Assembly (NCBI GenBank): GCA_036522635.1
Contig: DATDFM010000071.1
Location: forward strand, 1 to 63,559
From: Candidatus Udaeobacter sp.
GTDB lineage: Bacteria > Verrucomicrobiota > Verrucomicrobiia > Chthoniobacterales > UBA10450
Direction: 5' to 3'
DNA: 63,559 nucleotides
Both the position numbers and the translations under genes were made by a program. The notes beneath the pieces were generated by a model. It ran no database searches. It saw nothing but the letters and a program-made list of their open reading frames with translations, and was not told the DNA's origin. Below are positions 11,760 to 14,801 of the stretch, in pieces (within the stretch, counting starts at the first letter, position 1; every line of letters starts with the position of its first letter).

Positions 11760-13322
11760 TTATTCATCCAGCCAATCCATCGATTCAAGCAACCTGTGAA
11801 ATTGCGGATTGTCAGCTGACAACACAGGCAGCCATTCGCCGATCGGTTCGCGTTTCCACCACACTTTGTCGCCGATGGGCGCAAACTGATAGCGATAAAG
11901 TCGTGCTCGAATATAACGCGGAGGCGCATCGGGAAACGGGTTGTTCGCGATTAGCGATAGCGTGCCAGGATCGTTGTGGAGAAGTTTCCAAACAAAATGA
12001 AGCGTCCACGGATACTCGGAAGGTGATGACATTGCGGCGAACCAGATTTGCCAATCAATTCGCGGCTGATATGGCGCGACAAATGGCGGCCGGCGATTCG
12101 GATCACCGGGTTTGGCTTTGAACTCGTACTCTTTCCATTTCGTGTCACCGCTAATCAGTGCGTCATCCGTTCCCTCAAAGATAATTTCGTCACGTTCCCG
12201 GCCTACCGTGCCGAATGCGCCGTAAGTATTCACAAGATCAAGTGGATCGTACGAGTAATTCATCAGCTGCCGGCCGGACCCGAGATTGAGGACGGTCGGG
12301 ATGCTGAGCCAGATCACCATGATCGTTACCCCAACAGCAATACCGTTATTAATGCGCGATGGGTGCGATTCCTCAGCCGCGCGTTGCGCGCGTCTCACCA
12401 GCGGTCCCGGCAGAAAGCGCGCGAGAAAACTATCATCAAAGCACGCCAGAAACGGAATGATGGTGAGATAGTTGAGGAACGAAAGATTACCGCTGACGAT
12501 TAGAAAAATCTGGTACGTGATCAGCAAGACGCCGGCGATGTGGCGCGCCCTTCGCGGACCAAAAGAAAACCAGGGGACAATCAGCTCTAAGAAGTGATTC
12601 CAAAGTACTTCAAATTTATGGAACCAAAGCGGAGCAAAATGGAGATATCGGCTGATCGGGTTAGGGATTGGTTGCGTTTCGTAGTGGTAGTAGAGACACG
12701 TCAGATCGCGCCAGCAGGGATCGCCCCGCAATTTGATGAGGCCGGCGCCAAACATGATGCGGAACCCTAGCCACCGAAAAAGCCAAATCACCAGGATCGG
12801 GGGCCTGGACTTCGGGAAGGGTCGGCCATCGAGGAGTGGACAAAGAAAAATCGCCAGGAACCCCGTCTCGAGCAGCTGAATTTCCCAACCGTAGCCGTAC
12901 CAAATCTGGCCTATATGAACAATCGACATGTACATTGCCCAAAGAACCGCAAGCAGGATGGCGTTTGCGTAACCGGCGAGAACCACGAGTGACAACGCAA
13001 ATCCAATCCATGCGAAAATCGACAATCCATGGTCCGAAATTCCAAACCAGAAGAGCGTCGGCACTCGTAACATTCCGGCGCTTCGCGAACCAAGTTGTGT
13101 TTGAATTACGTCTAGAAAATGTGCGGCCGGTGTTAGACCACGCTCGCCAATGAGCGGGACGAGTTGATTTGCCGCTACCAAAAATGCGATTGCATACACG
13201 AATCCGAGTAATCGCAGGATAACAAAGCGCGTCAGCCAATATGAATTTCCGAGCGCGAAAAATCTTTCGACCAAATTTCGGAACTCATGCGGCCTCACAG
13301 GAAAACGTCGAACGCCGAACAC
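11760..13322 (-). CDS. Lipase maturation factor (LMF1/TMEM112-like) family membrane protein
   Basis: 520 aa. Multi-TM N-terminal two thirds plus a soluble C-terminal domain carrying YQPRIDWQIWFAAM, which matches my recollection of the LMF family signature. Apparent GTG start at 13322. Confidence 0.7.
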   Translation of the reverse strand: MFGVRRFPVRPHEFRNLVERFFALGNSYWLTRFVILRLLGFVYAIAFLVAANQLVPLIGERGLTPAAHFLDVIQTQLGSRSAGMLRVPTLFWFGISDHGLSIFAWIGFALSLVVLAGYANAILLAVLWAMYMSIVHIGQIWYGYGWEIQLLETGFLAIFLCPLLDGRPFPKSRPPILVIWLFRWLGFRIMFGAGLIKLRGDPCWRDLTCLYYHYETQPIPNPISRYLHFAPLWFHKFEVLWNHFLELIVPWFSFGPRRARHIAGVLLITYQIFLIVSGNLSFLNYLTIIPFLACFDDSFLARFLPGPLVRRAQRAAEESHPSRINNGIAVGVTIMVIWLSIPTVLNLGSGRQLMNYSYDPLDLVNTYGAFGTVGRERDEIIFEGTDDALISGDTKWKEYEFKAKPGDPNRRPPFVAPYQPRIDWQIWFAAMSSPSEYPWTLHFVWKLLHNDPGTLSLIANNPFPDAPPRYIRARLYRYQFAPIGDKVWWKREPIGEWLPVLSADNPQFHRLLESMDWLDE

Positions 13323-13348
13323 TCAACGTCCAACGCCGAATCGCTTGA

Positions 13349-13384
13349 AATATTGCCAGGGGGGAGATTCGAACTCCCGACCAA
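13349..13384. repeat. Left copy of a perfect 36-bp direct repeat (tRNA T-arm/3' acceptor plus trailer)
   Basis: AATATTGCCAGGGGGGAGATTCGAACTCCCGACCAA, identical to 13655-13690. Confidence 0.95.
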
Positions 13385-13410
13385 CCCCGAATGCTTTCGG
13401 GGCTGCTCTA
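13354..13410 (-). pseudogene. tRNA-like 3' fragment (D-stem 3' strand to discriminator) with a non-canonical hairpin in place of the anticodon arm
   Basis: Minus strand reads TAGAGCA-GCCCCGAAAGCATTCGGGGT-TGGTC-GGGAG-TTCGAAT-CTCCC-CCCTGGC-A. T-arm and acceptor are identical to the intact tRNA at 13660-13731. The 5' acceptor strand and D-loop are missing, replaced by the GIY-YIG ORF. Confidence 0.75.
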
Positions 13411-13650
13411 TTGTTGCAAATGATAGATCGCGACGGTCGGATTCTTCTTTGCTTTCAATGCGCGTTCAATTCTCCGCGCTTCTTGGAGTGTTGGCACCTC
13501 CTTGCTTACGACCATTTCGATTCTGTCGCCAAGCCGTTTGGTTGTGTGTGTATGACCTCGTAGGTGTTGTGCAAAACGAGCATCAAGATCTACAGCCGAG
13601 CCAATGTAATGACGCCCTGAAGACCCTCGGAGTATGTACACCCAAGCCAT
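13408..13650 (-). CDS. Small stand-alone GIY-YIG nuclease domain protein (UPF0213/YhbQ-like)
   Basis: 80 aa, [33 protein letters not shown]...[14 protein letters not shown]. Contains VYIL...YIG, a conserved Arg, and the Glu and Asn of the GIY-YIG fold. ATG lies 9 nt after the tRNA 3' end. The stop TAG is part of a tRNA-like D-stem. Confidence 0.85.
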
Positions 13651-13654
13651 AGAG

Positions 13655-13690
13655 AATATTGCCAGGGGGGAGATTCGAACTCCCGACCAA
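13655..13690. repeat. Right copy of the perfect 36-bp direct repeat
   Basis: Identical to 13349-13384. Overlaps the 3' part of the intact tRNA. Confidence 0.95.
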
Positions 13691-13731
13691 GGGCTTATGA
13701 GTCCCCTGCTCTACCACTGAGCTACCCTGGC
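13660..13731 (-). tRNA. tRNA with CAU anticodon (elongator Met, or tRNA-Ile2 read via lysidine); no CCA encoded
   Basis: Hand fold of 72 nt: GCCAGGG-TA-GCTC-AGTGGTA-GAGC-A-GGGGA-CTCATAA-GCCCT-TGGTC-GGGAG-TTCGAAT-CTCCC-CCCTGGC-A. Perfect 7-bp acceptor stem with a G1-C72 pair, so not an initiator. G27.U43 and an A31/G39 mismatch. The anticodon-arm and variable-loop layout resembles E. coli tRNA-Ile2 as I recall it. Confidence 0.85.
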
Positions 13732-13768
13732 GTGTAATCGGTGCGCAAAGCTAGCAAATTCCGCCAAT

Positions 13769-13820
13769 CGACCAACCCCGAACGCTTTCGGGGCTGCTCT
13801 ACCCACTGAGCTACCCTGGC
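13769..13820 (-). pseudogene. tRNA-like 5' fragment (acceptor 5' strand, D-arm, hairpin, variable loop; T-arm missing)
   Basis: Minus strand reads GCCAGGGTAGCTCAGTGGGTAGAGCAGCCCCGAAAGCGTTCGGGGTTGGTCG, then diverges (ATTGGCGG...). The first 18 nt are identical to the intact tRNA. Confidence 0.75.
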
Positions 13821-13857
13821 GTGTAATCGGTGCGCAAACCTAGCAAATTTCGCTAAT

Positions 13858-13907
13858 CGACCAACCCCGAATGCTTTCGGGCTGCTCTACCCACTGAGTA
13901 CCGTGGC
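13858..13907 (-). pseudogene. Degenerate second tRNA-like 5' fragment
   Basis: Same as 13769-13820, but with one G lost from the hairpin stem, one base lost in the D-arm and an altered acceptor strand (GCCACGGTACTCAGTGGG...). Confidence 0.65.
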
Positions 13908-14024
13908 ATTTAGTTCGGGAAGCAAAGTAACGAGTTTTTCGCGAAACAACCGTCCGCGACAAGCGATTTGCGGGAAAGGAAGATCCAACGCGTCACATTC
14001 CTGTCAACGCGCGGAAACGCGGGG

Positions 14025-14801
14025 CTATTTGCCGGCTGGTGGTGAAACGTACGGCGCCAAATCCTTGTCGCCACCTCGGATCGCGGCCATGAAGCAAACG
14101 CCGCTGTGTTCGGTCACTGCTCCGGTCCACCCTTCCTGATGAACATAGCGCCAGCCGGGAAACCTCTGCACGACTCCGGTCTTGCCGTCTCTCTCCGCCG
14201 GAAAAAGAAAGAACTGCATGCGTTTCTCAGAGACCCAAATTTGAGCGATCCGCCGCGATTCGTCATCTTCAAATACGCGACAACCAATGGTGGCAAAATC
14301 GGCGAACTCTGCCGGAACATCATAATGTTCCAACCCGTGTTTCATAAAGAACAGGTCGCTGAGCGTTCCTGCTTCAGCATTTACTGGATCCAGCATCACC
14401 GGTCGGGTCGAAGCAGCGACGCCTAACAATCTGCGAGCTGTCGTCGAACCGGGAAAATCGTTCAAATGACTAAAGAAATTGAACACAAACACTCCCGCAA
14501 TCACCGCAACAGCGATACTGATCGCCAGCACCGCGGGATTGCGCAGCGTGTTCTTCCACGTTCGCTTCGAGATTGGGGCCAGGTCTTTTTCCGAGAACCA
14601 CTCGGCAGATTCGGCCGGAATGGCGATGAGACGAACCAGGCGCGCGACGGCGCGATCGAAATTCTGTTGATCGGCAAATTCAGCGGAGCCGTCTGCACGA
14701 GACAGCGCTGCGCGCATCGGACGGTCCGCAATTTGACGCGCGCTTATCGGAGCGCAATTTAAGAGTGAACGCTCACGGCGCATCGACGACAATAGCTTCA
14801 T
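14025..14801 (-). CDS. Single-pass membrane protein, probable anti-sigma factor
   Basis: 258 aa. 4-nt overlap with the upstream ECF-like sigma gene. One TM segment, AVLAISIAVAVIAGVFVFNFF. No family motif recognised. Confidence 0.45.
   Translation of the reverse strand: MKLLSSMRRERSLLNCAPISARQIADRPMRAALSRADGSAEFADQQNFDRAVARLVRLIAIPAESAEWFSEKDLAPISKRTWKNTLRNPAVLAISIAVAVIAGVFVFNFFSHLNDFPGSTTARRLLGVAASTRPVMLDPVNAEAGTLSDLFFMKHGLEHYDVPAEFADFATIGCRVFEDDESRRIAQIWVSEKRMQFFLFPAERDGKTGVVQRFPGWRYVHQEGWTGAVTEHSGVCFMAAIRGGDKDLAPYVSPPAGK

Follow-up and report, generated by a model that had tools for sequence, protein, structure and literature searches.

Organization of the tRNA-nuclease locus

The contig DATDFM010000071.1 of Candidatus Udaeobacter sp. 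(assembly GCA_036522635.1) was analysed over its positions 1 to 63,559, a stretch to which we refer as the window. Between positions 13,349 and 13,907 it carries an intact tRNA gene with the anticodon CAU, an open reading frame (ORF) for a small GIY-YIG nuclease and three partial copies of the tRNA, named here fragments A, B and C, in which a hairpin takes the place of the anticodon arm. We take these fragments for the tRNA-derived arms of a small and probably selfish cassette housed in the tRNA-CAU gene. In the sense direction of the tRNA (minus strand), the order is fragment C, a 37-nt spacer, fragment B, the spacer again, the intact tRNA, a 9-nt linker, the 80-codon ORF and fragment A (Table 1).

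An initial annotation, made from the letters of the sequence, had described three minus-strand pieces that copy parts of the neighbouring tRNA-CAU with a hairpin for its anticodon arm, and the extracted sequences bear this out in every detail. From GAGCA to TGGTC the fragments read GCCCCGAAAGC(A/G)TTCGGGGT (20 nt), where the intact tRNA has its 17-nt anticodon arm, GGGGACTCATAAGCCCT. The module AGAGCAG-CCCCGAA-N4-TTCGGGG-TTGGT thus stands at the anticodon-arm place in partial copies of the host tRNA, which has a G1-C72 pair and is therefore not an initiator. Fragments B and C break at the same point, as had been noted, both ending after TTGGTCG and continuing with ATT, and their D-loop holds one G more than that of the intact tRNA. 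The decay ascribed to fragment C is also seen: one base of its hairpin stem is gone, and its acceptor and D-arm are altered.

The nuclease gene is joined closely to the tRNA-derived sequence on its 3′ side, where its stop codon TAG (13408-13410) doubles as the start of TAGAGCA in fragment A. It is bracketed by a perfect direct repeat, which comprises the 3′ part of the tRNA and 5 nt of the downstream flank. ARAGORN and Rfam at its gathering threshold recognised the intact tRNA alone and none of the fragments. With Rfam in E-value mode the region 13300-13950, for which the initial annotation had proposed such a scan, gave besides the intact tRNA a single match, to YrlA, whose 18 bits fall far short of the gathering score of 69; we took this match as chance and rejected the family.

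Table 1 Features of the tRNA-nuclease locus in the window
Feature	Positions	Strand	Remarks
Fragment A, 3′ tRNA-derived arm with the hairpin in the anticodon-arm place	13354-13410	-	tRNA positions ~20-73
Hairpin core of fragment A	13385-13402		CCCCGAA-AGCA-TTCGGGG (tRNA-sense strand), CAG before, TTGGT after
GIY-YIG nuclease ORF, single domain, 80 aa	13408-13650	-	PF01541 match
Linker, 9 nt, tRNA 3′ end to nuclease start codon	13651-13659	-	
Intact tRNA, anticodon CAU	13660-13731	-	ARAGORN; Rfam tRNA, 69.4 bits
Spacer, 37 nt, fragment B to intact tRNA	13732-13768	-	Conserved in many tRNA-Met cassettes
Fragment B, 5′ tRNA-derived arm	13769-13820	-	tRNA positions 1-49; hairpin core 13776-13793
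Second spacer copy	13821-13857	-	Within 89-nt tandem unit
Fragment C, 5′ tRNA-derived arm	13858-13907	-	tRNA positions 1-49; decaying duplicate of B
Perfect 36-bp direct repeat, two copies bracketing the nuclease gene	13349-13384 and 13655-13690		Read from sequence
Conserved GCGTTGACA box, -35-promoter-like, upstream of the whole unit	14002-14010	-	Invariant in six loci, both orientations

A single-domain GIY-YIG nuclease

The protein encoded next to the tRNA is a bare GIY-YIG catalytic domain, with a match to PF01541 (49.5 bits) that covers residues 1-71 of 80. The residues expected at the catalytic positions of the family (Y5, Y15, R25, H29, E62 and N70) are invariant in 17 homologues. The median pairwise dN/dS is ~0.12, in the tRNA-Met-linked and the tRNA-Lys-linked sets alike and with dS near saturation, which indicates that the gene is under purifying selection; judged from its sequence, the nuclease looks functional. 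It is the sole credible ORF between the tRNA-derived ends, and the insert contains no gene for a site-specific recombinase. The tree of the nuclease follows tRNA identity: all 41 Met-linked sequences fall in a single group, which is nested among the Lys-linked sequences. A search of the plasmid collection in protein mode gave no match. We also considered a tmRNA-like design, in which the start of the ORF pairs with the 3′ acceptor strand of fragment A. It was rejected, because the ORF start ATGGCTTGGGT is identical in Met and Lys cassettes, whereas their acceptor stems differ.

A conserved unit at more than 100 loci

The layout was surveyed in 36 annotated loci from relatives and 80 public loci found with the nuclease, and recurs at more than 100 loci in Candidatus Udaeobacter and other Verrucomicrobiota. 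The conserved unit consists of a 5′ arm with hairpin, a spacer, an intact tRNA, ~9 nt, the nuclease gene and a 3′ arm with hairpin. A tRNA lies at most 60 nt upstream of the nuclease at 67 of the 80 public loci; of these 67, 63 possess a 3′ arm with the hairpin and 42 possess one or more 5′ arms. The motif GAGCAG-hairpin-TTGGTC, typically in pairs ~390 nt apart, is present in 25 of 36 genomes sampled from the genus and in a single genome from a different family, and the loci examined from these motif-bearing genomes carry the whole layout or part of it.

The extent and number of the arms vary between loci (denoted by L numbers; C and G numbers stand for contigs and genomes). The 3′ copy is near full length in L075, 5′ copies extend into the T-arm in L066, L091 and L102, up to four or five 5′ arms form arrays in L051 and L102, and the whole unit is present as a tandem copy in L021. 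Two cassette-bearing contigs, L076 and L101, are labelled Alphaproteobacteria and Bifidobacterium, which may reflect mis-binning or transfer.

The survey bears directly on the first of two explanations offered by the initial annotation, according to which a separate tRNA-like RNA gene, unable to decode, was split by rearrangements and left the fragments behind. Joining a 5′ fragment to the 3′ fragment does give a 76-nt cloverleaf-like sequence, and the annotation's statement that the element exists only as three fragments holds for this genome, where there is no intact copy, but not for the relative L075, in which a near-complete hairpin-bearing copy spans positions 2-76. This copy still belongs to a cassette, however, and neither the own genome nor any of 60 relatives yielded an intact, conserved hairpin-tRNA gene away from a nuclease gene or a free-standing copy of the pieces. 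At more than 100 loci and at three different tRNAs the pieces keep a fixed order, they match no RNA family, and cassette-free alleles place them exactly where the native ends of the tRNA meet the native flanks, which identifies them as duplicated ends of the resident tRNA. We therefore give a fragmented tRNA-like gene hardly any credence.

Conservation and dispersal of the hairpin

The Ssn enzymes, of which SsnA of Neisseria meningitidis is an example, are single-domain GIY-YIG proteins of ~94 aa (Chenal et al. 2025, PMC11893778). Binding to their hairpin repeat (NTS/SRM) requires single-stranded DNA, which is cut a few bases upstream of the repeat; the sequence of the stem matters and that of the loop does not, while a short upstream flank sets the orientation (PMC11893778). 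Such repeats bracket the ssn gene and are also scattered through the genome (PMC11893778).

The hairpin of fragment A folds as single-stranded DNA with -15.5 kcal/mol (z = -4.4). Among 236 hairpin copies beside Met and Lys tRNAs, the stem positions are at least 96% identical and the loop positions 62-89%; the stem figure is in part a product of construction, since copies were picked with at most two mismatches, but the contrast between stem and loop is not. This pattern indicates that the sequence of the stem is conserved, and not just its pairing. A compensated stem change is present in one Pedosphaera copy (L091).

Besides the three copies that flank the nuclease gene, all in direct orientation, 33 more are found elsewhere in the genome, as the 18-nt core CCCCGAA-N4-TTCGGGG occurs with at most one mismatch at 36 places in 4.05 Mb. 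Five of six control patterns gave 0-2 matches, and a close variant, GCCCGAA-N4-TTCGGGC, gave 12. The dispersed hairpins are oriented: CAG lies 5′ on one strand only in 19 of the 33, compared with ~1 expected by chance. When exact matches are counted, this genome has 22, and the 36 genomes of the genus have 1-53 apiece. Of 24 genomes that represent other families of the order, 23 have none; the remaining one, G046, has just two copies of the hairpin, both in its cassette. The core also occurs within a longer repeat family of ~80 nt, cattctgagcgaagcgaagctgcaacgcag-hairpin-cgaggccaggctttcaatctc, and in REP-like contexts of the form GTAGGGCAG...TTGCCCTAC, with examples across the genome at C25:4048, C53:56342, C132:12239, C224:6005 and C241:10795.

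Such contexts raise the question whether the hairpin is a REP-type repeat, moved by Y1 (RAYT-like) transposases, that reached the spare tRNA copies independently of the GIY-YIG gene. Nine matches to Y1_Tnp are present in the genome, some dispersed copies lie in GTAG...CTAC contexts, and the D-arm of the tRNA itself provides GTAGAGCAG beside the hairpin. Yet the hairpin is present on none of the nine contigs with a Y1_Tnp match, which is a weak negative because the contigs are short; in G046 it is confined to the cassette, and its linkage with the nuclease holds across orders and at three tRNAs. An origin of this kind is thus highly unlikely. The Y1 transposase (RAYT/IS200-like) matches lie on C5, C116, C244, C6 and others, and several of the ORFs are ~153 aa long.

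The hairpin could instead act as RNA, as a terminator, a 3′-end stabiliser or processing signal for a tRNA-nuclease transcript, or an upstream insulator, its tRNA-like context being incidental. Its strong fold and its placement just past the nuclease stop codon and upstream of the tRNA agree with such a role, as do copies that follow two other tRNA genes (C66 and C75). Assembled contigs, the form in which both the RNA-library and the metagenome evidence used here is available and in which stretches lacking RNA cover carry no meaning, point in the same direction. One RNA-library contig of 172 nt (13554-13725) bridges the tRNA and the start of the ORF free of mismatches, and another covers 13753-13871 with the 5′ fragments. 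These contigs are no more than a hint of tRNA-nuclease co-transcription, as they may stem from DNA carry-over. Against a function as RNA, the stem sequence is kept without covariation, save for the L091 variant, dispersed copies lie in both orientations within other repeats with an oriented CAG flank, and other nuclease clades have hairpins of their own within tRNA copies (see below). The hairpin also lacks a T-run and the terminator scan makes no call, for which reasons a classical intrinsic terminator was rejected. On balance, a role as RNA seems quite unlikely.

Host tRNAs and sister clades

The cassette is hosted by three tRNA species, namely a CAU tRNA of the GCCAGGG type, as here, a CAU tRNA of the GGGCC type, and Lys-UUU, and the stem CCCCGAA/TTCGGGG is the same in all three. 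In this genome only 3 of 54 tRNA genes have AGAGCAG directly 5′ and TTGGT directly 3′ of the anticodon-arm core, and these three, tRNA-CAU on C71, tRNA-CAU on C162 and tRNA-Lys(UUU) on C239, are exactly the host species of the relatives. The 5′ frame alone is found in five more tRNA genes (Phe, Ser-GCT and three copies of Thr-UGU), none of which is a host. The choice of host tRNA appears to be predicted by 12 bases of framing sequence.

More distant GIY-YIG clades of the same genus are located directly after the initiator tRNA, tRNA-Asn, tRNA-Pro and tRNA-Val, and the first three have a palindrome of their own within a partial tRNA copy. The palindrome is TCCGGCAGCTGCCGGA or TCCCGCG-N3-GCGGGA in the initiator-tRNA clade (L131-L135, L137), TCCCGAC-N3-GTCGGGA in the tRNA-Asn clade (L136, L141-L143) and GTCGCCGCGGCGAC in the tRNA-Pro clade (L138, L139). 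For the tRNA-Val clade a possible longer, imperfect hairpin was read by eye in L134, and none was seen in the copy on C73 of the own genome. Sequence comparison thus indicates that the genus holds five parallel nuclease clades.

Two further observations concern these clades. The copy on C73 (12661-13050) is a distant GIY-YIG paralogue with 40% identity that starts 14 nt after tRNA-Val(GAC) and is followed by a hairpin-free 28-nt repeat of the tRNA 3′ end. The Neisseria NTS has the same palindromic core as the initiator-tRNA clade, TCCCGCG-N3-GCGGGA; ahead of it stand the anticodon-loop bases CTCATAA in the clade and GTCAT in the NTS.

History of the tRNA-Met locus

The tRNA-Met unit has the same two neighbours in nearly all genomes of the genus, the gene for an LMF-like membrane protein on one side and that for a 258-aa protein on the other. 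In the cassette-free alleles L123 and L124 the tRNA abuts the native flanks that here meet the outer ends of the fragments; the downstream flank that adjoins the outer end of fragment A, for example, directly follows the tRNA in L124. Between these empty sites and the full alleles, the same locus is found with the 5′ half only, with the 3′ half only, or in a decayed state with the nuclease frameshifted or truncated (L121, L122, L003, L018 and L029). Where ORF-derived sequence adjoins tRNA-derived sequence, the junctions are concentrated 6-15 nt 5′ of the palindrome.

The orientation of the unit also varies. When region 13270-14040 was compared with its counterparts in 57 loci, the whole unit including the GCGTTGACA box was found in either orientation between the same flanking genes, and the tree of the flanking proteins requires at least eight flips. 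The box itself, at which a scan for the sigma-70 consensus called no promoter, is invariant in the six loci compared, which cover both orientations, and inverts along with the unit. No inverted repeats were identified at the inversion breakpoints, and recombination between two palindromic hairpins was rejected as the cause of the inversions, because the outer tRNA arms and the box invert with the unit. Copy number varies within a population as well: a contig from a soil metagenome in which this strain is present runs from 13713 directly into 13803 and therefore lacks one 89-nt unit. The locus has an active history of duplication, inversion, and gain or loss, and is unstable in copy number and orientation.

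This history can be set against the view that the system is domesticated, the host keeping nuclease and hairpins for a purpose such as the control of recombination or incoming DNA at tRNA loci, or the tuning of tRNA dosage, with no selfish spread. The long vertical persistence at one syntenic locus with a dN/dS of 0.12 speaks for it, as does the hairpin at dozens of other sites in the genus, and Ssn is known to modulate natural transformation in Neisseria (PMC11893778). Within the genus, however, the nuclease is often decayed or lost (L003, L016, L018, L029, L121) and cassette-free genomes exist, a pattern of loss that suits the gain, decay and loss cycle of a homing gene better than an essential host function. 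We regard domestication as unlikely, though not negligible.

Short repeated motifs resembling CGTTSGACGTT are present at 13304-13340, in the interval that separates the tRNA unit from the beginning of the LMF-like gene. The motifs recur downstream of the tRNA in L124, L122 and L020, and are conserved across species with or without the cassette.

Proposed mechanism

We favour, with a probability of about 0.6, the interpretation that the locus is an Ssn-like cassette, in which a single-domain GIY-YIG nuclease and its cognate hairpin became lodged in a tRNA gene via recombination through tRNA homology. The second explanation of the initial annotation, that the hairpin is a variant of the site recognised by the nuclease, is accordingly the one favoured by the sequence evidence: the stem sequence is kept across orders while the loop varies, the hairpin brackets the gene, and the hairpins are specific to nuclease clades. 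This evidence concerns the association of hairpin and nuclease; for the reaction itself, the cleavage, its strand and its substrate are all taken by analogy from the Ssn family.

The cassette may work as follows. Like Ssn nucleases on their NTS/SRM hairpins, the nuclease would bind the hairpin in single-stranded DNA and place a nick a few bases to its 5′ side. The break would stimulate the resident tRNA gene to recombine with a hairpin-plugged tRNA copy, with tRNA positions 1-27 and 43-73 serving as homology arms. A single crossover in the 3′ arm would produce an intact tRNA, the nuclease gene and a hairpin copy, in this order and bounded by a direct repeat of the 3′ part of the tRNA, a product that would correspond to the core of the locus described here; if the crossover fell in the 5′ arm, the mirror layout would result. 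Unequal exchange between the repeated tRNA parts could later generate the upstream 5′ fragments, the 89-nt arrays and the tandem units, and lead to the loss of either half. One complete copy of the tRNA is always kept, and therefore the cell loses nothing.

Several points, to which the analogy just mentioned belongs, weigh against this interpretation. The tRNA-Met cassette is at one syntenic locus throughout the genus, for which reason recent mobility is not demonstrated; its persistence is mostly vertical, and the empty sites could be precise losses. The inversions of the whole unit are left unexplained by the model. The closest solved structures are UPF0213 proteins (E = 1e-8), which bears on a placement in the Ssn subfamily, and the published SRM search pattern has 0 matches in 13200-14100 and 14 genome-wide, which we take as background. 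Finally, the number of hairpins tracks the nuclease only loosely, with a mean of ~20 in genomes that have it and ~8 in those that do not (36 genomes), a trend not counted as evidence because the genomes are related and incomplete.

A more specific form of the Ssn-like model can be put forward tentatively, and with less than even odds. The cassette would be a self-propagating parasite of tRNA genes, whose 80-aa nuclease reads the hairpin framed by AGAGCAG and TTGGT. The anticodon-arm DNA of three tRNAs would present a weak version of the same site and serve as entry points, and the hairpin-plugged copy would supply the homology arms. In Udaeobacter the hairpin would have escaped and seeded oriented repeats across the genome, and parallel lineages with other hairpins would occupy the initiator, Asn, Pro and Val tRNA genes.

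Significance

A search of the literature on GIY-YIG proteins with tRNA genes, on Verrucomicrobia and on UPF0213 found no description of a mini GIY-YIG gene surrounded by tRNA copies whose anticodon arm is replaced by a hairpin. The locus also adds a frame rule for host tRNAs, a connection of the cassette hairpin with an oriented repeat found genus-wide, the five parallel clades, the repeated inversions and the copy-number variant at the population level. If the mechanism is true, minimal Ssn-type GIY-YIG nucleases do more than lie scattered beside dispersed hairpins and can build compact cassettes inside essential tRNA genes harmlessly, which would explain many of the odd 'tRNA pseudogene fragments' and tRNA-adjacent GIY-YIG genes in annotations. 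The cassettes would cause local instability of tRNA loci, in the form of arrays, inversions and possibly new dispersed repeats, in bacteria that rank among the most abundant in soil. Each cassette lineage would, moreover, be a natural, putative pair of nuclease and hairpin for applications with single-stranded DNA.

Comparison with known systems

REP and REPIN repeats are associated with RAYT transposases, and elements of the IS200/IS605 type move by hairpin-guided transposition of a single strand. The repeats described here are likewise short dispersed palindromes, some with GTAG heads, and the enzyme would recognise a DNA hairpin. In contrast, the linked enzyme is a GIY-YIG nuclease and not of the HUH/Y1 type, and within the short contigs available the hairpin flanks none of the Y1 genes of this genome.

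Genomic islands and prophages with tyrosine integrases target tRNA genes and carry a replacement for the 3′ end of the tRNA. The cassette resembles them in that the host tRNA is preserved and the insert is delimited by direct repeats of the tRNA 3′ part (36 bp in this case). It differs from them in having no integrase, in the size of the insert (~0.3-0.55 kb), in the additional duplication of 5′ tRNA parts and in the hairpin that stands for the anticodon arm.

Enzymes of the Seg type combine a nuclease domain with separate DNA-binding modules and are typically longer than 200 aa. One of them, SegB of phage T4, is a free-standing GIY-YIG homing endonuclease encoded in a tRNA gene cluster (PMC2330249). 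The cassette shares with Seg loci a GIY-YIG gene among or beside tRNA genes, the occurrence of occupied, empty and decayed alleles at one locus, and the amplification of segments near the nuclease (compare PMC13096335). However, the protein of the cassette is a bare 80-aa catalytic domain, it is encoded on a bacterial chromosome and not by a phage, and hairpin-plugged tRNA copies are a feature of the cassette that Seg loci do not have.

The closest published system is the pair formed by Ssn and its NTS hairpin. The text of the paper describing it does not contain the word tRNA (PMC11893778), and in our case the hairpins lie inside partial tRNA copies, where they replace the anticodon arm, with an intact tRNA within the bracket. 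The hairpin misses the SRM pattern, and we liken the cassette to Ssn and its hairpin but do not file it as a member of that family (cd10448). The likeness extends to both partners: the protein is shorter than 100 aa and has a single GIY-YIG domain with the expected catalytic residues intact, and the hairpin repeat lies on both sides of the gene and is also dispersed, oriented by a short non-palindromic flank. In both systems the stem is conserved and the loop is free, and different lineages of the nuclease have different hairpins, which agrees with a cassette that would work in the manner of an Ssn enzyme and its hairpin.

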